A stretch of 54,892 nucleotides of DNA, counting the filler, from Catajapyx aquilonaris (Eukaryota), in NCBI GenBank assembly GCA_000934665.2. It is 2 parts of 2 records of this genome, joined end to end, with 100 filler letters (N's around TTAATTAATTAA, not from the genome) between each part and the next. Parts side by side here need not be neighbours in the genome. Positions count along the whole stretch, not along the records: positions 1 to 27,457 come from JYFJ02005071.1; 1 more part is not named here. The stretch is one strand, 5' to 3'. The position numbers and the translations under genes are program-made. The notes beneath the pieces were generated by a model that saw only the letters and a list, made by a program, of their open reading frames with translations, was not told the origin of the DNA and did not search any database. The first letter of the stretch is position 1. Every line of letters begins with the position of its first letter. Shown piece after piece: positions 1 through 40,011 of the stretch.

Positions 1-611
1 CCTCGCCTACTTGTTGACGACGAATTTGCTCAATTTTGCGTCTGAAAGTTGCCGACTCCTATCCGGGGATCAAAAGAAGTGCAGAGGTAGACAGCGAAAA
101 AAAATGGCTGGCGTGTGGGACCCAACGTTGACCCAACATGACTGCCGGCGGCCAGTTTATCAGCCACACAGGCCTTTCATGTTCGAAGGGCCAATTTATA
201 AAGAAATGTTTGATAACTTAAATTTCAATTTTTCAAACAAGGGTAAATTGCAACAACTGATTTTTTGTGATGACATTTTTTTACTAACAGATCAAGTCTA
301 CTTATTTATTAATATTATACCGTACAAGCCCTATCTCCTGGGCTTACACTTGTGGTAGTGCGGATCCAGCTTCCTCTTTACAACTCTGCTGACTGCGACT
401 GGCTCCTCTCTGGCCACTGATGGCCGCTTTGGAGATTCCCTAGAACTTCTAGTCCCCTTTGCTGAAGTTGCAGTCTGCACCACTGCAGCTACAATTGGGG
501 TTAGTCACGCCAGTAGAAACATGCTCCGCTGTCGGTGAACCAAACACCAACGTCACAGTGTGCTTCGGCTGAATGTGGGCCTCTACTTTGCTCTTGCATC
601 TGAAAGCTTCA

Positions 612-2069
612 TCACAATGGGGGCAACACCAGTTTTTGGGGAACCTTTTTATGTGTCCTCATGTGATGGTAAAGAGCATTTTTCGACTTCATGCATTTCC
701 CACATTCTCCGCAAACATGAGATTCATCTTCCATGTGCAGCAACTTGTGCTCTTTCAAATTACTTGCTCTACCAAAAGCCTTACCACACACGTCACATTC
801 AAAGGGCCTTTCCCCAGTGTGAGTCAAGCCATGCCTTACCAAATTACCCTTCGTAGTGAATGGCATTCCGCACAAGGCGCAATTGAACCTACTCTCTGAG
901 CATGCCTCCGTATGCTTCTTCAAGTGACGCTTCAGGTACATCTCATTCTTGAAAGTGGAGGGGCAGAGTTTGCATTTGAATACTTGTGTCAGCTCAGTAT
1001 GCTTCAATTGCTTGTGAAGTTTCAAGTAATCCACAGACTTAAACCTACTGTTGCAAACATCACAAGGAAAGGTTTTCTCTTTCGCATGTGCACTTGCATG
1101 CCTCTTCAAGTCAGCGTCGGATTTAAATGGCTTGTTGCACACTCTGCAAACATGAATTTGCTCGTGCACTTTAATGTGTGCCAAAACTGCTCCTTCTCTA
1201 ACGAAGGACTTGTTGCAAACATGACACACGAATTTACCACCAGCGTCATGGGAGGAAGCGTGAAGCTGCAGCCTGACCTCGGAAAAGAAGGACTTGTTGC
1301 ATCTGGTGCACTTGTGGGGCTTCTCTCCCTGATGGGATTCCTTGTGCTTGCTCAAAGATCCCAAATTCTTGCATATCTTGCCACAAACATCACACGGGAA
1401 GGCACTGTGGGAGCGTCTGTGGGCCTTAGCCTTCTTTTCCTCATCAAAAACCACTCCGCAGATGGGGCAAGGGAAAGAATAGCTTGCCTACAAAAAAAAA
1501 TAGCACAAAATTTAGAAAAAATCAGTTTCACCTTGTCACCACTGCAGCTTCCAATGCTATGTGACCCACCCTTGCTATCTCCATGCTATCATCAGAATGG
1601 TTCTGCTTTTCCATCCTGAAGCTCTTCAGAATTTCCGTTGTTGGAGGACCTCGGACTGATTCTGAATCTGGCTTGACACCGACAGTCAAGATCAAGCCAC
1701 TGTCCGCAGCCGAGTTTTCACCCTCCTCCTCCTCCTCGTCATGTCCCGCTGACAGCTGAAATTAAATGTGCGCTTGTTAATTGCCATATTAAAGTCCCGT
1801 GGGTTACGATCTGATTCCACATGTTGCTCTCTCATACACTTTACTGGCATGCCAAAGGTGATCCACATGCTCACCTCTCCCTCACTGCCGCCTTCGTCTT
1901 CCATTTTCACATGGTCATCAACGCCTGAAACGTATTCCTCGATGAAGCCAGGCGTCTCCTCCTCCTGGTCAGGCGTCTCCTCCTTGAACCGGAGGAGCCA
2001 AGTCTCCTCCGTAGTCATCTCCTCGTCCTCATCCTCCGCTTCCTTCTTGATGGTCGGAATGGTAGACAT
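612..2069 (-). CDS. Multi-C2H2 zinc-finger protein (acidic N-terminus plus 10 fingers; ~418 aa to the first stop)
   Basis: Phase-consistent exons 2069-1875, 1755-1570 and 1487-612 with GT..AG introns. The last exon encodes 10 C-x2-C-x12-H-x3/4-H fingers (e.g. FECDVCGKAFGRASNLKEHKLLH) and a TGERPF linker. The exon-2 donor is the least certain junction. Coding-like sequence continues in shifted frames to 331 (see findings). Confidence 0.88.
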
Positions 2070-2805
2070 GGTCCTGGCTGCGGTTGAAAAAATTATTACT
2101 AGCAACAGATGCTGTGGCATAATGTAATGGCCAAGATTTCCTACCCAATTTATATAATCACACACAGAGAGAGGTTGTTTGTTTGTTTGTCCAGGGTCGG
2201 TTACCACACGCCTGAAACTGGGCTGTCGAGACAACTGGTAGCCGCAATGGCTGCCTTCCCCGTATCCCCACGCCTTCCCCCTTCCTTTTGGACCACGACA
2301 GGATCGGCCCCGCTTCTTAATTAACTAATTAATGACGATTAATTTACCTGAAGAAAGAAGAAGCACGTGAGCAGAAAGAAGAGCACGCCCGTCGCTATTC
2401 ACTTGTTGAATCCACAGCTGTTATGCTATTCTGCGCCTCGGTTAGCAGCTAATGTCGTTAAGCGAATTCAGCTTAGCCGCTATTTGTGGTTGGGGCGCAT
2501 TCCGACGGCTGACAAAAGTCAGGGACGGACTTATGCGCTATTATAAACGCGACGGCTAGTGTAACCGCTACTCTCGCTAACAAGTTATTTCAATGGGAGT
2601 GAAAAATATTACACAATTAAAGTTACGATTAACCTGCCTTAATTACTGATTACTTCAATTAACTATTAATTACTTTGTTCAGGGGAAAATCGAGTGTTGT
2701 AGGCAGGACGTGGCTAAATTATGGTGAGAAAATGTAAATTCAATTTATTAAATATTAATTTTTGTCGTTGAAATAAAAGAGCGTTGTCCTAATTGTGCTA
2801 CTGCC

Positions 2806-2865
<60 letters not shown>
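2806..2865. repeat. (AAT)n microsatellite
   Basis: About 20 perfect AAT units, read directly. Confidence 0.97.
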
Positions 2866-2866
<1 letters not shown>

Positions 2867-2951
2867 ATACATACATTTCACGGCATATTCCCATCAAGAT
2901 GGGGTTACCAGCGATGACCAGGTAGGCCTTACAGTCCACCTGGCCATCTCG

Positions 2952-2993
2952 AATAAATAATATAATAATATAATAATATAATAATATAATAAC

Positions 2994-3078
<85 letters not shown>
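2952..3078. repeat. (AAT)n microsatellite with degenerate 5' part
   Basis: Perfect AAT array at ~2996-3078, preceded by degenerate AT-rich units. Confidence 0.95.
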
Positions 3079-3080
<2 letters not shown>

Positions 3081-4148
3081 ACCACTCCCATTTGAATATT
3101 ATTGGCGTACTTTTCTGGTGAAAATAATATGGAAGGATTTGTACTACAAACATCAATATCATTTTAAACCTGTCGAGGGGGAAAAATATTTAAATATCAA
3201 ATATCATCATTTTGGCTTCCGACTTCTTTTCCTTTGCTTATCACAAATATGCGATTAATTAATCCGAAATGCTCGTTACATGTCTGTTAATTGAAGATCC
3301 AGGCGAACTTCTCAAGTTCGCGTTAAAGATATTTAACACTGCTAAATATTAACAGAGTAGGATGGCCCGGGATGGCCGTTCGAAAGGTTAAGGTAAGGTT
3401 TTCATCACATTTATTACATTTAAAATGCAAGTATAACATGATTATGCAGTGGACATCATTACAGTCATTACCGATCTTGCATCGGCCAGAGATTCACAAG
3501 GTAAATAATAAGAGTTTGTGTATTGCAATGGTTCGACACAGAATAATTTCCTCAAATCACCATTTAACAATATTCCTTTAGAGATTTTAAAAAAAAACTA
3601 CAAATAAAATCCATTCCTTCAATTAATCGTGACCACGTGAGCTTTATGAGTACAGCGACTGCGCTCAGATAATCAAGTTGCTGGAAATTATGAGGGAGCT
3701 TCCCATATAAATGAACACACTTATGTCTCTTGGTAATGTTGCTCTCGAGCAAACATGTCCAACTGCCACTGTGGCAGCGCACCAGCGTTAAATTTGCATT
3801 GTTTCCAGGCAAGTGGCGGAGAGGATATTATTTTCAGCGTGACTTATTGTGGCAGTAGGTCCCACTTACCCGGGTGTTCCTTATTATACGGGAGTACCTT
3901 TGAGCAACACACATGAAGCGAGTAATCATCACAAGGAAACTACACGTCCACCTTCTCACAAAGTGGTGCTTGCTGGATTAATATTGTTATTTTCTCATTT
4001 TTGCTTTCATTAGTTACATGAAGTAGCGTACAGGCGAGTACCTTCACGATTACTCTCACCACGTTTAGTGCAGAAAATCATTCAGGTAATTAAAAATTAA
4101 TGCTATAATCTATCCCATTAAGTGATACGTAAATAAAAATTAAAGATG

Positions 4149-7100
4149 TTACCTTCTAAATAACCTCCTAAGCATTCCAGGTATAGATCTGCTACTCCTG
4201 ACTTGTGTAGCTTCCATATTACGCTTTGTCAAAAGAGTGTCCGGATGGTCATGACCCAACACCTTTTCCCGCTTATTCAAAACCTCCCTGTATGCCCGCA
4301 AGGCTTCATTGTACCTGCCTTGGTCATCTAACACATTGGCCATGTTCATCTTTGTGCAAAGAGTGTCCGGATGGTCATGACCCAACACTTTTTCCTGCTT
4401 ATCCATAACCTCCCTGTATACCCGCCAGGCTTCCTCATGATTTCCTTGATTCCGTAACACCACTGCCACACCCATCTTTGTCCTAAGAGTGTCCGGATGG
4501 TCATGGCCCAACACTTTTTCCTGCTTATTCAAAACCTCCCTGTATGCCCGCAAGGGTTCCTCGTAATTTCCTTGGTTCTGTAACACCCCTGCCATGTTCA
4601 TCTTTGTCCTAAGAGTGTCCGGATGGTCATGACCCAACACTTTTTCCCGCTTATTCAAAACCTCCCTGTACGCCCGCAAGGCTTCCTCATTATTTCCTTG
4701 ATCCTGTAACACCCCTGCCACACCCATCTTCGTCTTAAGAGTATCCGGATGGTCGTGACGCAACACTTTTTCCTGCTTATTCAACACCTCCCTGTATGCC
4801 CGCAAGGCTTCATCGTAATTTCCTTGATTCCGTAACACCACTGCCATGTTCACCTTTGTCTTAAGAGTGTCTGGATGGTCATGACCCAACACTTTTTCCT
4901 GCTTATTCAAAACCTCCCTGTATATCCGCAAGGCTTCGTCATAATTCCCTTGGTTCTGTAGCACCAGTGCCACACCCATCTTTGTGGCAAGAGTGTCCGG
5001 ATGGTCATGACCCAACACTTTTTCCCTCTTATCCAAAACCTCCCTGTATGCCCGCAAGGCTTCCTCATTATTTCCTTGATCCTGTAACACCCCTGCCACA
5101 CCCATCTTCGTCTTAAGAGTGCCCGGATGGTCATGACCCAACACTTTTTCCTGCTTATTCAAGTATACCCGCAGGGCTTCCTCGTAATTTCCTTGATTCC
5201 ATAGCACCACTGCCATACCCATCTTTGTCCCAAGAGTGTCCGGATGGTCATGACCCAACATTTTTTCCTGCTTATTCAAAACCTCCCTGTTTGCCCGCAA
5301 GGCTTCGTCGTAATTTCCTTGATTCCATAGCACCCCTGCCATGTTCACCTTTGTCTCAAGAGTGTCCGGATGGTCATGACCCAACACTCTTTCCCTCTTC
5401 TCCAAAACATCCCTGTAAACCCACAAGGCTTCGTCGTACTTCCCTTGGTTCTGTAGCATGCAGGCCCCGTCATGCTTTGTCCGAAGAGTGTCTGGATGGT
5501 CGTAACCTAACACTTCCTCCTCCTTCACCAACACTCTCCTGTAGAATGCTAAAGCCTCGTTCCACTTGCCCGCTTCACGTAGGGAGTGAGCAGAATCGAC
5601 CACTTCCTTCCATGCCCTCATCTGATCATGATGTTGTTTTGAGTAGTGTGTCCCACTGGCATCCCCAGCTCCATCCTGCCCACCTCCACTCGACGCGCGA
5701 TGACTACCCTTCGAATCGTCCATCCCCTTTGCTGCTCCCTTGCATCCAATACCATCACTTCCAGATGACGGTATTGTCTCGTCACCTGTGTCCTTGTCCA
5801 CTTGAGTGCTGCCCTGTCCTTTTCCTACCCCGAGTCTTCTCCTACTAGTTTCGGGGCTGTCCAGCTTGAGTCCTGCAGTGGCCTCACTTAATGATCCTCC
5901 TCCTTGTTCACCTGAGACGATATGCTCATTCTGTGGAGACATGATCGGGACCTGAAAGAGGCAAGTGGACGTCTTCACTTCTTCGCGTTATCTGTAAATC
6001 TTCGTTAAAATGTAACAATAACCTACCGTCCGATTTATTTATCACTTCCAACTCAAGAATTGGATTTCAAAACAGACATCGTCACATGAAAACGATTGCC
6101 CTGTTTACTGGCTTGAAATCCATAGTACTTCCTGGATTCCTCTTTTTTTCAAATATTTCAGGAAGAAGAGATAGGTCATACGGACAAGAAAAAATAAATT
6201 GACATGTACATTTTGTTGCTAAGCTGGCCAGTATTGTTATTCATCTGATTGCCCTTCAACAGGTGGATGAATTATGTTGGCAGCAAATCACGAGATTTTG
6301 ACATGACCAATATCACTCATCAGCATGTGAAATCAGATGAGCAACAGTCCTCTTTAAAATGACGTGAAATCATATTAAATTATTAGCAATAATCACGGTT
6401 GGAAACAACGCTGATTTCAAATGAAATGTTTACAAATTATTTCTATCGCTCACCGTTTTTGAGCAATCGGCATTTTGAGCAATCGGCATGTTTGAAATCC
6501 CACATGATCTGTAATTTGTGAGTCAGCAATGATCAATATGGCTTAATTAATGGATTCATTATGTGGCCCCTATTGTGGTACCAGTAGATAAACAGTTAAA
6601 ATTGTTACATGAAGCAATTGTTGCCTAAATGATAGTGACATCGGGCTGTGCGTAGAAGGGCCTACTGCCGGGACAGTAAGGTCTGCTACAAGAAAATAGA
6701 TGCCGATAGAAATGCTGATTTAATATTCAGAATCAGCGGCTATGAATGGATAAGAAGTACCCTAGCTGAAATATTGTTCATGTAACAAAATTATTGCTGG
6801 CCAGTTTAATTTTCCATAAGGGAGGAGAAAGATGATAAATACCTGAGTCGACTGCTGATCTTGATCAGTGTCTACAGATGTTTTACTCTCGTTCAGCCTG
6901 TAATGAAACCCAGAGAAAGAAATTAAAATAAAGAGTAACATAAATGGGGAATATATCATTAAATAAGACACAGTTGATCTGTTGGTGGCATGGCAAAACA
7001 TGTGACAATAAAATAAGCATGACCTTCACCCCTACCTAGCTAGAGTTAGGGAGAGGCTGAATGTTTCAGGGTTCAACTCAAAATAAATTCATTCTTACGC

Positions 7101-7601
7101 TGGCTCAGTGGGCATATAAATTTGAATTGATGGTGATATGATCTTTTTTTGGCCAGAAGATATAAAAGCAAAAAAATTTGAACTCATCTACGTTAGTAGG
7201 TGTTAGTCTTTAATCTTAAATTAACATTATGTGCAAAGTATGCGAATGGATTACCTAGCTTCTGATGGAATCCCATGTTTGTCCATCTCGTCTTTCAGGT
7301 ACATGGACAGATAAAAATGCCTTTCCTCGACAGCAAAATACGAGGCGGTCTTTCCATCCTTGGTCTTGGCCAAAAGGTCAGCTCCCTTCTGGACCAGGAA
7401 CTTGGCCACCATCAGATGACCAGCCCTGGCCGCAACATGCAAGGGAGTGACCAGCTCGTTGGTTCGGATGTCCACCTGGGCACCATGGTCCAGCAGGAGA
7501 CGGCATATTTGCACGCTGCCTTTCTCCGCCGCTTCGTGCAGAGCAGATCTGCCCAACTCGTCTTGGGCATCGGCGTCACATTGAGACTGGGACAGCAGCA
7601 T
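4149..7601 (-). CDS. Ankyrin-repeat + TPR-array protein (kinesin-light-chain/nephrocystin-3-type 42-aa TPRs), ~734 aa model
   Basis: The ANK exon 7601-7255 (GRSALHEAA, VTPLHVAA, GKTASYFAV) ends in phase 2. Micro-exon 6897-6843 starts in phase 2 and ends in phase 0. The large exon 5951-4149 starts in phase 0 (VPIMSPQ...) and encodes 11 LGHDHPDTL-type repeats. Domain identities are clear, but exon joining is inferred from phase. The start and the final exon are uncertain: the stop overlaps a GTAA donor at 4152. Confidence 0.75.
4222..5600 (-). repeat. Coding tandem array of 126-bp TPR units (11 copies, one with a 9-bp deletion)
   Basis: Near-identical DNA units containing 'agagtgtccggatggtcatgacccaacac' recur every 126 bp. 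One unit reads ALRVYLNKQ instead of ALRxYREVLNKQ. Confidence 0.93.
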
Positions 7602-8104
7602 CTTGTTTGATAACAGTGCTTCTTTGAGGAAGTCCTTGAAAAAGCTTCTCAAGTGTTTGCAGGTTGAAAATAACAATTATCTAGATACCACTTGGGGTTT
7701 ATATCGCCCCAACCCACTGGTCAATAATCCATATTTGCAATCAGATAAGATGGGCTCAAAGTGTGAATGGGTCACCTTGACTATATACGGCTCATAACAT
7801 GTGAAAATGGGGATTACGTGATTATTTACTGAATGCTCGTCGCTGCCACCACCACCCAAACTACAATAATATTTAAATGTGCCATAACTGACCACATCGT
7901 CTACTTTTCTTACAGGATCAAAGGCAAGTCTGCTAAGGTTTTATCAGAAAATACAGCTACAAATTCCAATAATAAACCGCGGGGAGAGGTTCAACAGTGT
8001 TATCGTGCACAATTGCAGTTGAAGGGATGCCTGCGTATTTCTCGAGATTTTTCTCTACGACTTGTTAGGTCAAATGGGAAGTGTTGACTGGTGCTACGTT
8101 ACTA

Positions 8105-8488
8105 TTACCCTGGAGGAGAGGAGATTAGAGGGAGGTGAGGGAGCATGAGCTGTAGCAAACCCGAAAGCTGGAGACATTTGAGGGCATTTGAGAGAGAGGC
8201 ATGAACGGTAACGAACCACAGGACGCTGCAAGTTGTCACCCGGCTGCAGTTGTGCAAGGTCAGCTCTCTCAGCTGGCGGCATCTGGAAGCTACGGCGTCA
8301 ATGGATCTGTACTTCAGGTTGGGGCATGAGCAAATCTCCAGTCTTTCCAGGTCCCCAAAATACTCTGGCCTGAAGAGTTCCTGGAACTTGATTAGTTTCG
8401 CCTTACCCCAATCGACTTTGAGATGGCGCAAACGCTTCAAACATCTGATCACAACACTATATTCATCCAAGAAACTACTCCAGGTGAA
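8105..8488 (-). pseudogene. Orphan cysteine-containing LRR (FBXL/AMN1-like) exon or gene fragment
   Basis: The ORF reads LERLEICSCPNLKYRSIDAVASRCRQLRELTLHNCSRVT, the LxxLxLxxCxxL pattern of F-box/LRR proteins. It has no in-frame ATG at its 5' end and lies only ~150 nt downstream of the MCM6 poly(A) signal. Confidence 0.5.
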
Positions 8489-8677
8489 TTAAATGTAATG
8501 ATTACCCGCTATTAGTCACCAAATATGGAAGAAAGCAGAAGGACGAAAATCCCACCCATTACATTAATTCCATGCATATTGTACCAGGGAGCCTGCAATG
8601 AAAAGACACCGCCTGATTTCTTATTGAACAAACCATTTATTATTAAATGCAGGACATAATAGTTGAACAAACATCAC

Positions 8678-12514
<3,837 letters not shown>

Positions 12515-13175: not shown

Positions 13176-15128
13176 ATGGCCGCGTGCAACCGACGATTGT
13201 TTGAAGCCGCTCTTGACGGGGACGTGAGGTAATTAACGGGCCGCTAATTAGCATAGCCATCACATTGTATGGAGCCAGCACAATTTGAGCAAAAAAAAAA
13301 AGTCAAAAAAATAAAGTACGAATAATCATACATATATAAATGGGAAAGTTTGTCGGTATGTAGGTATGTCACGGCTATTTGACCCACTTCTGAACTGCTG
13401 AGAGTGATGAAACTTGGCACGCTGATGTATTACGTGCCGATGATTCTGGAACAAGTGCGAAAACCGCATTTTTTAAAAGTCTAAATGACATAAATGTAGT
13501 ATTTTCTGTTATTTTTTAAACAAGTTTGGTATTCATCTTAATTTACATTTATTTTTTTATTTTTTTCAAAATTATAATTAATTACTTCATGTACTGCAGG
13601 GACGTCCAACTCTGCCTGAAAAAGGGAGCCGACCCCACGGATTTGCGCAGCGGGAAAGGAGCATGTGCGCTCCACGTGGCGGCTGGAACCAGGGGCGGCC
13701 CCAGGGCGGCCCTGGACATGATGACCCTCATGCTGACCGATGCGGTGGATCCAAACATACGGACAGACGAAGGCGTTTCGCCATTACACATCGCAGCCAT
13801 GTTTGGACGCACAACCTTGCTCAAGACCCTATTGAGACTAGGGGCCGCCCCAGGTGTTCGGGATGACCAGGGGCGAACCCCGGCGCAGTACGCATGGCGG
13901 GAAGGACATTACGACGCCGCAATGTTACTCGACTCATGGCCGCAGAGGGACTCGGACAGTCTTAACGAGATGGGATCCCCAGATGAAAGTGTCGGACTTA
14001 ACACCGCATTTAACCTAACTGGATCTAGCGTTGGGCATGCTTCTGTTGCAACCAAAAGTACGAAGCGACGCTCGTCAGCGCATGAATCGGTGCGTACCAG
14101 TACGTCATCTGATTACCACACATGCAGCGCAGCTTCGGACGATTTATCTAAAAGGCTGGGCGCCCTAGCGTTAGACCCAGAGGAGTCAACCGAAAGCATG
14201 AAGTCCGACCTTCTCAGGCAGGAGCTTCAGAACCGTGGGTTCGACCCCGGCCCAATTACGCCTACGACGAAGCGAGTGTACCTGAAGCACCTGCGAATGA
14301 ATAAGCTGAATCCGACCCAACCTGAATCGTTAGGTAACCGGGGTTACATATTAATATGAGGGGGGGTGTTAAAATTTATAGTCGGACGCTCACTTCCATT
14401 TGCTGCACAGGTTTCTCTCGGGAGCTGACCCGCGCTTTGAATGACCCTGCGAAGTTCGACTGGGGTCGCGGGATGACCCTAGAGGACGAGCTGGTTCGGT
14501 CGCTCCGGACGTACGAGTCGCGCAGATGCTTCTACAACTACCTGCTGCTTGATCCGGGCGTACTTGCCAGCTGCACACGGTAATTCGGGCTAATTGCGCA
14601 CGTACTGATTAATAGCGTGTTTGTTTCATACCTAGGCCGAATGCGGACGATCCCGCTTACTTCCGCTGCTTTGCCACGTCCGTCTTTTACGTCGGGAAAG
14701 GCCGGGAGTCTCGAAGGCAGGACCACTTCAAGGAGGCGATGAGCGGAGTGAAATCAGGACCAAAAGCGGAGAGGATCAAGGCCATTTGGAAGTGCGGAAG
14801 AGGGGTCGTACCTGTGGAGATATGTCAGAACGGGACAAACGAGGAATCGCTCAGTCGAGAGGGTTCGCTCATATGTGCAATAGGTAAGTACGATCATCGC
14901 ATTAATTACAAGCAATACGTTACCGTTTCCGTAGGGCGATCGCATCTGACTAACCAGCGCGGAGGTGAATTCCACGGAGCGGCCAGATTCTGGAAGAACT
15001 CCGACCGCTGCCTTCTCGGGACGAAGCTGCTGCTTCAAGCCGCCAAGACGTTCAAGATGAACCCGACAGTCGAGCTTCGTCCGCAAAACTTGAAGCTGTC
15101 GCCATCAACGCCCAGAAGATGGCGCTAG
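13176..15128 (+). CDS. ANKLE1: Ankyrin repeat and LEM domain-containing GIY-YIG endonuclease ANKLE1/LEM-3 (5 exons, ~465 aa)
   Basis: Exons 13176-13228, 13600-14333, 14411-14579, 14636-14883 and 14935-15128 are phase-consistent (1398 nt). N-terminal ankyrin repeats, a LEM domain (LRQELQNRGFDPGPITPTTKRVYLKHL) and a GIY-YIG nuclease (YNYLLLDP...FYVGKG...R...E...LTN). AATAAA at 15226. Confidence 0.93.
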
Positions 15129-15398: not shown

Positions 15399-27043
<11,645 letters not shown>

Positions 27044-38335: not shown

Positions 38336-40011
38336 ATGGAACGTGTCTGGTGGATAGGACGTACTGGGGTGGTCATCATTTTGCTGCTGACCTGGATTGA
38401 CCCGGGGGCAGCGTGGCGGCTTTGGGGGGGAGACTCGACCCACCCATTATGTACCAGTGAATGCAGGTATGTCCTTGCACTTGATTCAGTTGCGTATAAT
38501 AACATGTAACTGCCAGTGTAGAGTTGTAATAACACGTTTGTATGCACAGATGTGACACGGACGCCATTGCCGACTGCACTCGATTGAACTTAACCGAAAT
38601 TTCCATGGGTACATCGGTGCCAGCAGACATCACAACGTTGGACCTGACCGGAAACAAAATAACGGAAATTAAGGGAGACACCTGGGGTGATGTGAAGAGT
38701 TTGGTAGAATTGCGTCTGGCCAGGAACCGAATAAGTACTGTTGGTTTCAAGGGCTTCTCAAGTCTTCTCAGGTTGGACCTGAGCAGTAATATGCTGCAAG
38801 AGCTGTCTGAAGACATGCTGAGCGGCCTACAAGACTTGGAGGAGCTGAACTTGGGATATAATACCTTACTGAAGATGCCTAGTGGTGATGTCTTGCGCAA
38901 AAGTTTTCCAAAACTGTCTGCCCTTGGCTTGGCTTCTGTTGACCTGAGCACGGCGGTCAGTGCTGACCCGGCATTCTTTTCCTCCATGCCTTCATTACGC
39001 AAGCTCGACCTGACCAATTGCAGTCTGACCTCTTTACCTGACACTCTTTTCAATGATACCATTTACCTTGAAGAACTTATCTTAACCTTGAACCCACTGA
39101 CCGCAGTTCCATCATCAGCCCTCATCGCCCCATCACTCCGTATCCTAGACCTGTCCAGAACCGACCTTGTGTCTCTGGATTCCCACGTCTTCCATGGACT
39201 CTTCCATCTTCAGGAACTTCGCCTGGAACACTTGCTGAAGCTCGAAAAGGTGTCCGACATGGCCTTTGCTGACCTAGAATCCTTGGAAATTCTTAACCTC
39301 CATGGAAATCCCCAACTCTCCTACATCTCCGAAAGGGCCTTTCATTCCTACCGAACCGGACATAAGACTCCAGGAGTCGGTACCACCGGTCCTCAACTCC
39401 GAACTCTCCAGCTTTCCATGAACAACTTGAAAAGTCTTCCCCCTAACCTGATCCCCTGTTGGAACACCCTGGAGACATTGGATCTTCAGGAGAATCCCTG
39501 GGCATGCGACGACTGCACGACCATCTCCTTCCTGCAGAGGCTTCGTCGACAAGCAGACCACCCCACAGTTGTAGGCGGCATCAACTGCACCGATTCCTCC
39601 GGTTCCAAGTTCTCCGACAGAGTGGTGGCCAACAACAAAGAAGCTCTTTGCGTCACTCCTCATCAAGTATCTGAGAGCCAGTTGCTGAAGTTGACCTCGA
39701 CGGAACTCCAGTCAATTCATGCGGGTGTAAAATGCACATCGTCCAAGATGCCTTCCAGACCTGGCTCGGTGTCCAAGGGAGTTCTTCTAGGATTGGGTTC
39801 AGCGGGGCTTTTTCTGGCATTGTTGGTGATGGGATGCTTGGCTTACCGTGCTCTTCGTTCCTCATGCGTGAAGCCTCCTGGTGGATTCTTCGGATGTTGC
39901 ACTAATAATGCTTCCACTTCTTCGGCCGGTTTGGAGGGATACGTACGCATCCGAAATTCCAAGAACCGGATTGACCTGGAGTGGGACAATCGCGATATGG
40001 GCCTTAATTAA
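38336..40011 (+). CDS. Type I membrane leucine-rich-repeat protein (signal peptide, LRRNT, about 10 LRRs, LRRCT, TM, short tail; ~530 aa)
   Basis: Exon 38336-38466 (MERVWWIGRTGVVIILLLTWIDPGAA...CTSEC) splices in phase 2 to exon 38550-40011. The protein has LxxLxLxxN repeats, an NPWACDDC LRRCT cap and the TM segment GVLLGLGSAGLFLALLVMGCLAY. AATAAA near 40152 and 40277. Confidence 0.92.

Follow-up and report, generated by a model that had tools for sequence, protein, structure and literature searches.

We propose that a TPR array encoded in the genome of Catajapyx aquilonaris probably serves as the variable module for ligand binding in a family of cytosolic ankyrin-(PERK-like kinase)-TPR proteins that is specific to its lineage and evolves by birth and death. 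The array lies in a stretch of 54,892 nucleotides, filler included, which we refer to here as the window.

A tandem-repeat search detected a 126-bp period in the array (10.3 copies, 83% matches, 4224-5515), and the open frame that holds it (Table 1) matches Pfam TPR_10 (E 6.7e-119) and TPR_12, at 385 bits relative to a cut-off of 27.5. The array therefore combines the 42-residue helix-turn-helix period of 42PR / KLC-type TPR repeats with a score above the Pfam cut-off. The motif HP[DG]TL occurs 11 times, at spacings of 42, 42, 39, 42, 42, 42, 42, 42, 42 and 42 residues. An earlier note, made from the DNA of the window, had described 11 near-identical repeats of 42 residues. The period stands, but there are ten full units, the third of them short by 9 bp, followed by a stub of ~11 residues; units and stub together span 5498-4215 on the minus strand. 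"Near-identical" was generous for repeats with a mean pairwise amino-acid identity of 75% (77% for units 2-10) and 84-85% identity to their own consensus. The four residue series that the note quoted are exact: R,E,G,K,A,K,K,R,R,C,L at unit position 6, D,N,G,G,G,N,G,N,G,N at position 10, C,G,V,G,L,V,G,G,V,N at position 13 and Q,W,W,Q,Q,R,Q,Q,R,D at position 16. An AlphaFold2 model from a 26-row alignment presents the array as a TPR solenoid (mean pLDDT 91.5), with predicted helices at unit positions ~2-17 (helix A) and ~21-38 (helix B); in unit 3 confidence falls locally to pLDDT 75-76. Changes in helix B of the window copy comprise an Ala-to-Pro, a Leu-to-Trp and a 3-residue deletion. At its end the tail is basic and amphipathic, with a hydrophobic moment of 0.82 across the final 10 residues, and may bind membranes there. 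The best solved relatives of the array are kinesin light chain (KLC) TPRs and two Podospora 42-residue repeat structures, and the fold matches of the model include KLC1-peptide complexes.

Table 1. Features of the array gene and neighbouring genes, in window coordinates.
Feature	Position	Strand	Basis or remark
Open reading frame, 612 codons stop to stop	5987..4149	minus	open-frame search
TPR array, ten 42-residue units (unit 1 = 5498-5373 ... unit 10 = 4373-4248)	4248..5498	minus	repeats, Pfam, model
Unit 3, 39 residues	5130..5246	minus	9 bp lost in frame from helix B, at 5163/5162
11th-unit stub (final helix) and C-terminal tail	4149..4247	minus	stop codon 4151-4149
Degenerate N-terminal capping helix pair of the solenoid, common to paralogues	5499..5633	minus	paralogue comparison, model
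Gly/Ser-rich low-complexity linker, start of exon 3	5634..5951	minus	acceptor ...TTTCAG at 5952, phase 0
Predicted micro-exon, 55 nt, phase 2 to phase 0	6843..6897	minus	homology to paralogous loci
Remaining ankyrin exon part, in-frame ATG at 7601 to phase-2 donor AG/GTAATC	7255..7601	minus	paralogue homology
Junction of 1,280-bp deletion relative to C3073 paralogue	7603..7604	.	end of homology
C2H2 zinc-finger gene	612-2324		ordinary neighbour
MCM helicase	8674-11508		ordinary neighbour
Ankyrin-LEM gene, presumably ANKLE1-like	13520-15128		ordinary neighbour
C2-domain gene, which we take to be MCTP-like	15797-17392		ordinary neighbour
Leucine-rich-repeat membrane protein	38533-40011		ordinary neighbour

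Variation among the units is concentrated at unit positions 6, 9, 10, 13, 16 and 17, all on helix A, in agreement with the earlier proposal that the variable sites share one helix. The KLC1 residues that grip the JIP1 and TorsinA peptides are listed in the available text of PMC6214655, and the nine contact positions that we compared with this pattern were chosen from that list, that is, from outside our data. We placed them on the units by counting along the ungapped alignment to KLC1. Residues K340, N259/N301/N343, N302/N344/N386 and V305/L347 correspond to unit positions 6, 9, 10 and 13, and L348, R266, K309/N351, Y313 and R327 to positions 14, 16, 17, 21 and 35; the 42-residue spacing within N259/N301/N343 and N302/N344/N386 confirms the register. 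In the window (nine units, without unit 3), mean entropy is 1.34 bits at the nine contact positions versus 0.34 at the other 33, a contrast equalled by none of 100,000 random nine-position sets; hence the substitutions are clustered, as had been claimed, and not evenly spread. Across 105 paralogous units the corresponding values are 2.40 and 0.88 bits, equalled by 1 of 100,000 random sets. The variable positions thus appear to match the residues lining the concave groove of KLC1 in its peptide-bound structures: the predicted structure puts them on helix A of the solenoid, and the groove face is assigned by homology to KLC1.

A search of the same genome with the array gave at least 115 array matches on at least 25 contigs among 120 scored candidates. 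We cut 154 units from 22 frames and dropped 18 that were out of register and 22 from four divergent arrays, leaving 114. In a tree-free comparison, pN at positions 6, 9, 13, 16 and 17, a set selected from data that include the window, was 2.1 times pS at other codons in window and paralogues alike, and scaffold pN/pS was 0.43-0.54. A codon model of the 114 units with one synonymous rate gave omega values of 3.6, 3.6 and 2.8 at positions 6, 13 and 16 (LR 92, 71 and 40), with weaker signals at positions 9, 22, 27 and 33. Omega above 1 at positions 6, 13 and 16 persisted with a tree from helix A only and in 61 units of intact arrays, and the helix-B half alone gave no position with omega above 1. 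Fourteen null simulations, in which omega could not exceed 1 and conversion acted block-wise, reached a maximum LR of 19.5 and a maximum omega of 1.7. The excess of per-codon dN/dS expected under the earlier reading is therefore found family-wide at these three positions, but the window's nine units alone support only position 6 (LR 13.3). With a free synonymous rate per site, positions 6, 13 and 16 reached p 0.006-0.04, which does not survive correction for 42 sites; no position passed in the intact-array subset, and calls at p<0.05 also arose in 6 of the 14 null runs. Synonymous differences are likewise raised at the variable codons (pS 0.41-0.55 versus 0.21-0.28), and omega across the whole family is 0.88. 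We conclude that the evidence for diversifying selection at the groove is good at the level of the family and modest at the level of this gene; judged by its pN/pS, the scaffold is under purifying selection.

The array also bears signs of exchange between units. Among its informative site pairs 103 of 210 are incompatible (PHI-type p 0.03), indicating mosaic units, and units 4 and 7, the pair from which shuffling or gene conversion was originally suspected, differ at just 5 of 126 nt (4%). Both observations bear that suspicion out. Synonymous divergence of the window gene from its nearest paralogues is 10-17%; since units 4 and 7 differ by less than this, the array has evidently been duplicating or converting units after gene duplication. 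Across the family, the nearest neighbour lies in the same array for 49 of 114 units, versus 7.7% expected, and unit 1 matches unit 1 of the paralogues rather than units of its own array. We considered and rejected duplication of a three-unit block (378-bp period), units 4 and 7 being the only close pair. The longest identical run within the array is only 71 nt, making assembly collapse unlikely.

The array had been described as an intronless, stand-alone gene. Only the array exon is free of introns: upstream of it, an ankyrin exon and a conserved micro-exon are predicted to splice to it in frame. The remaining ankyrin part, approximately the last half of the paralogues' four-repeat ankyrin domain, is 84% identical to the copy on C639 over 117 residues, and its phase-2 donor at 7255 is the same junction in all ten paralogues examined. 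Micro-exon homologues occur at 12 places in paralogous loci, and 11 of the 12 preserve the frame by their length (one of these contains stops). The three predicted exons (ankyrin, micro-exon, linker plus TPR) would encode a 734-residue protein with one stop. When the micro-exon is omitted the frame stops at residue 137, so the micro-exon is needed for the frame of the spliced product. Both introns have canonical ends, and the 1.8-kb exon is still open. We found no NB-ARC/NACHT NTPase in the array frame, in the upstream exon or in the domain maps of the paralogues, which contain ankyrin, kinase and TPR domains only; the gene was thus rightly described as being without an NTPase domain. An NLR N-terminal effector domain is likewise absent, the N-terminus being a truncated ankyrin domain, and the kinase of the paralogues is missing: a tblastn search of window 1-12000 with the paralogue kinase gave nothing below E 1.3.

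The family spans at least 12 contigs, with repeat numbers from 1 to over 20, and many paralogues are frameshifted or truncated. The ankyrin exon and the array flank a kinase exon on C3476, C3977 and C2499; C248 carries both an ankyrin-kinase gene and arrays. The kinase exon is of phase 2-2 in the three genes checked, and C2499 holds ankyrin, kinase, a 46-nt homologue of the micro-exon and a TPR exon in matching phases. Loss of such a symmetric exon keeps the frame intact, and the window layout is that of the C2499 gene minus this exon. A 35-row ankyrin tree unites the kinase-less genes in a single clade of 11 rows (100/99), placed among relatives that carry the kinase; this favours loss of the kinase in that branch. 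The genome also contains a much larger ankyrin-kinase-ankyrin set (139 kinase and 48 ankyrin matches at E<=1e-15), an expansion with PERK-like kinases in dozens of copies, many with stops, spread over many contigs of the assembly (G000; L063-L088, L101-L106). More divergent TPR arrays, some adjoining ankyrin frames, are present at L050 (C3984), L057 (C4722), L071 (C2207), L073 (C5288) and L075 (C6400), and were excluded from the selection test. Hydrophobic or amphipathic tails occur on paralogous arrays at L031:1270-3321, L034:2680-4887, L033:5092-5922 and L050:6481-8838, and in the nearest NB-ARC-TPR proteins of the database, P0002 and P0020, the C-terminus carries a CaaX-like motif; the family arrays and these proteins may have membrane targeting in common.

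The best PDB match of a paralogue kinase is PERK (E 2.8e-46), and the best matches of these kinases overall are PERK, PKR and GCN2. The TPR-linked kinases on C3476, C3977, C2499 and C248, unlike the window copy, which has no kinase, keep the catalytic motifs of eIF2alpha kinases (VAIK, HRDLKPSN, DFG, GT..YMSPE). In contrast to PERK and PKR, their sensor would be a TPR array with ankyrins rather than a luminal or dsRNA-binding domain, and they lack the Arg/Asp salt bridge of PERK (R..D is replaced by H....V/A), which we take to be the back-to-back dimer pair. Their alphaG motif, presumably the site of eIF2alpha docking, is lengthened and partly changed. In a kinase tree that contains no named PKR or HRI rows, and at least one row of which (C434a) is out of frame, the family kinases form two clades apart from PERK, and the genome retains a normal PERK that scores best against insect and shrimp PERK, an indication that the animal is probably an arthropod. 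Two near-identical kinases of the TPR-linked clade, on C144 (L061:553-1524) and C7906 (L062:5438-6430), stand out: the C144 kinase has lost catalytic motifs, including the Gly loop and the APE motif, and resembles a pseudokinase, possibly a step towards kinase loss. Neither ankyrin nor TPR was present on any of the 150 best library representatives of the kinase, and no ankyrin family accession occurred among 101 longer kinase hits. RIPK4, ANKK1 and DAPK, which appeared among ESM Atlas matches of an ankyrin-kinase paralogue, were set aside as unrelated ankyrin-kinase families. A literature search that left most subscription papers outside its reach returned no paper on an eIF2alpha kinase with ankyrin or TPR domains, or on a variable TPR family in arthropods.

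TPR arrays of high internal conservation are known from fungal NB-ARC/NACHT receptors such as Podospora Pa_2_10340 (Dyrka et al. 2014, PMC4986451), and the available text of that paper (section 17) reports selected sites on the concave face of a KLC-modelled fungal NLR TPR. The analogy to fungal NLR-like arrays drawn in the earlier note therefore has the same groove pattern in print. The window array resembles the fungal ones in its KLC-type units, concave-face selected sites and signs of shuffling; in internal conservation it lies close to their ~85%. Against the fungal-type threshold of at least 85% internal identity over 100 residues, it has 84% (units 1-10) or 85% (units 2-10), measured relative to the consensus and not with T-REKS. 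Concave-face selection is apparent for the family and weak for the window alone, the face being assigned by KLC1 homology. The fungal sites are, in the same text, polymorphic as well as positively selected. Unlike the fungal arrays, the window array has no STAND NTPase, is linked to ankyrins (and in relatives to a PERK-like kinase) and belongs to an animal. With the 42PR class, as it is named in the accessible part of PMC5642895 (PDB 4y6c/4y6w from Podospora; KLC1/KLC2, PDB 6fuz, 5oj8), it shares the 42-residue period and an HPD-type loop. Its alignment to KLC1 is ungapped (E 5.8e-39; TM-score 0.77-0.79 over KLC1 chains), but identity is ~30%, the heptad/kinesin-binding part is absent, ten near-copies replace six divergent units, and the groove Asn of KLC1 at unit position 10 is Gly in 5 of 10 window units. 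The gene is accordingly not a kinesin light chain; near-identical KLC exons lie on C1499, in a separate multi-exon gene. Ankyrin-NB-ARC-TPR proteins of Wolbachia, phage WO and some insects, as described in the available text of PMC5062602, have the same unit type; in contrast to them, the window gene has introns, is short and carries no NB-ARC. The window gene is thus not an NLR, though by analogy its array would function as the TPR arrays of high conservation do in fungal NLRs. What is new is the setting: in this animal family such an array is joined to ankyrins, with or without a PERK-like kinase. We did not find an array joined to ankyrin or kinase in place of an NTPase elsewhere.

The closest units that we found (67% scaffold identity) are in NB-ARC-TPR proteins. 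The NTPase of these proteins shares 42-43% identity with that of an intronless, 2,777-residue ankyrin-NB-ARC-TPR-ankyrin gene of the same genome (C387, a 98-kb contig; L047:1191-9521, minus strand). This gene is closest to Wolbachia proteins, with 41-46% identity over the NB-ARC region, and is a candidate for symbiont-host transfer. It adjoins animal-type genes, and a broken relative lies on C1323 (L049). Phage matches of the array are confined to four Wolbachia WO records (47.9%). Named Wolbachia units share only 53% identity with the family scaffold, nearly the same value as fungal units (51%), and a contig scan gave 34 prokaryotic loci, the best at 45%, with no close prokaryotic source. With the array as query, a general homologue search brought up generic TPR proteins in order of repeat number. 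A 44-row unit tree groups the family with NB-ARC-TPR rows from Wolbachia, insects and metagenomes, yet four fungal-type rows nest inside. Because of this nesting, because three similar units were joined per protein, which inflates support, and because KLC rows were absent, we rejected the tree as proof of origin. Transfer of TPR/ankyrin genes between WO and arthropods, in an unclear direction, is described in the accessible part of PMC5062602. Descent of the array from a Wolbachia-like NB-ARC-TPR class is suggested and, given the similar Wolbachia and fungal identities and the unreliable unit tree, stands as a lead.

How far this copy is still a working gene bears on its interpretation. It could well be a young pseudogene, although we lean against this: its groove pattern would then have been inherited from working ancestors or paralogues and silenced by the 1,280-bp deletion, a history compatible with our reading of the family. 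Homology to all paralogous ankyrin exons ends at 7603, and the sequence beyond lies 1,280 bp further upstream in the C3073 paralogue. The deletion took the ancestral start codon, ~74 codons with two ankyrin repeats and ~1.1 kb upstream. Contigs from a single sample, perhaps the one from which the assembly was built, span the junction without mismatch in all three of its DNA runs; words of the locus are near absent from the single run of a second sample (X5). Among the runs matched to 5400-8200 none was RNA, which is neutral as to expression. Helix-breaking changes in units 3, 8 and 9, and the progressive 5' loss or frameshifts of other copies, also point to decay. Yet the 1.8-kb exon is open with only an in-frame indel, the intron ends are canonical, and an in-frame ATG lies directly past the junction. 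Window-specific ankyrin changes are 3 synonymous to 3 non-synonymous (small numbers), and the similarity of units 4 and 7 argues that the array was still duplicating or converting units after gene duplication. It is very improbable that the locus is instead contaminating DNA, or what remains of a symbiont (Wolbachia-like) TPR gene that no longer functions. The exclusively Wolbachia WO phage matches would fit such an origin, as would nearest units in NB-ARC-TPR proteins of a subtype common to Wolbachia, but the exon structure, with spliceosomal introns and a conserved micro-exon, largely refutes it. The neighbours are animal genes (MCM, C2H2 zinc finger), read depth over 5400-8200 is single-copy like the flanks, and the family is present on many contigs.

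The variability itself might reflect no selection for novelty, the groove consisting of unconstrained surface sites on a scaffold held by the fold, and the mosaic arising from unequal crossing-over or patchy conversion. The raised synonymous differences at the same codons, the weakness of site-wise tests with a free synonymous rate and the many decayed copies in the data set are all consistent with this. We nevertheless consider it unlikely: relaxation caps pN at pS, yet groove pN is twice scaffold pS; helix-B positions, many of them exposed, show no omega above 1; and the signal tracks helical periodicity, unlike a mutation hot spot. Selection may, alternatively, have favoured diversity for host proteins, the arrays serving as kinase-substrate or cargo adaptors or in intragenomic conflict, rather than for foreign ligands. 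That the closest solved structures are cargo-binding KLC TPRs, that the kinases have changed eIF2alpha-docking and dimer surfaces, and that C-terminal hydrophobic or amphipathic tails suggest membrane sites all speak for host ligands. Against them, the host KLC is a separate multi-exon gene (C1499), and the rapid gain and loss of copies and repeats would fit an arms race better; we regard host ligands as an improbable explanation of the pattern.

The units fold as helix pairs and stack into a TPR solenoid whose groove residues change 3-4 times faster than synonymous sites family-wide, while units are duplicated and patched within arrays; our preferred reading, that of a variable ligand-binding module, builds on this. 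From this evolutionary pattern we infer a role in foreign-ligand recognition or immunity: the groove would hold extended peptides from a rapidly evolving partner, the most plausible being a protein of a pathogen or symbiont. Ligand binding might cluster or unlock the kinase of kinase-bearing relatives, and kinase-less members such as the window gene could act through their ankyrin repeats as adaptors, partner sensors or decoys. If true, the union of a groove-diversifying TPR with an eIF2alpha-kinase-like domain would be a candidate route from sensing of intracellular invaders to translation shutdown, with six groove positions as a compact recognition code. Taken alone, the window copy is of smaller value, as a possibly dead example of the kinase-less branch. 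According to the available text of PMC4986451, NLRs seem to be missing from arthropods, and that of PMC5666893 restricts PKR to vertebrates. A bolder reading, doubtful when taken as a whole, is that the family is an NLR-independent receptor repertoire of arthropods, in which a TPR sensor of STAND type that shuffles its units, and may have come from Wolbachia-like NB-ARC-TPR genes, was grafted onto an ankyrin-regulated, PERK-derived kinase. The outcome would be a PKR-like switch with a reprogrammable peptide-binding groove, and kinase-less copies such as the window gene would be sensors or decoys.

The surroundings of the gene are otherwise ordinary (Table 1). Window positions 1-27457 map to contig C2905, and the remainder lies past the gap. 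Upstream of the deletion, at 8105-8488 on the minus strand, is a leucine-rich-repeat-like fragment with no Pfam hit, and DNA resembling it is found upstream of the C3073 paralogue. AAT and AGT microsatellites and AT-rich minisatellites occupy positions 2806-3078, 11743-12385, 19170-19415 and 25497-25879.
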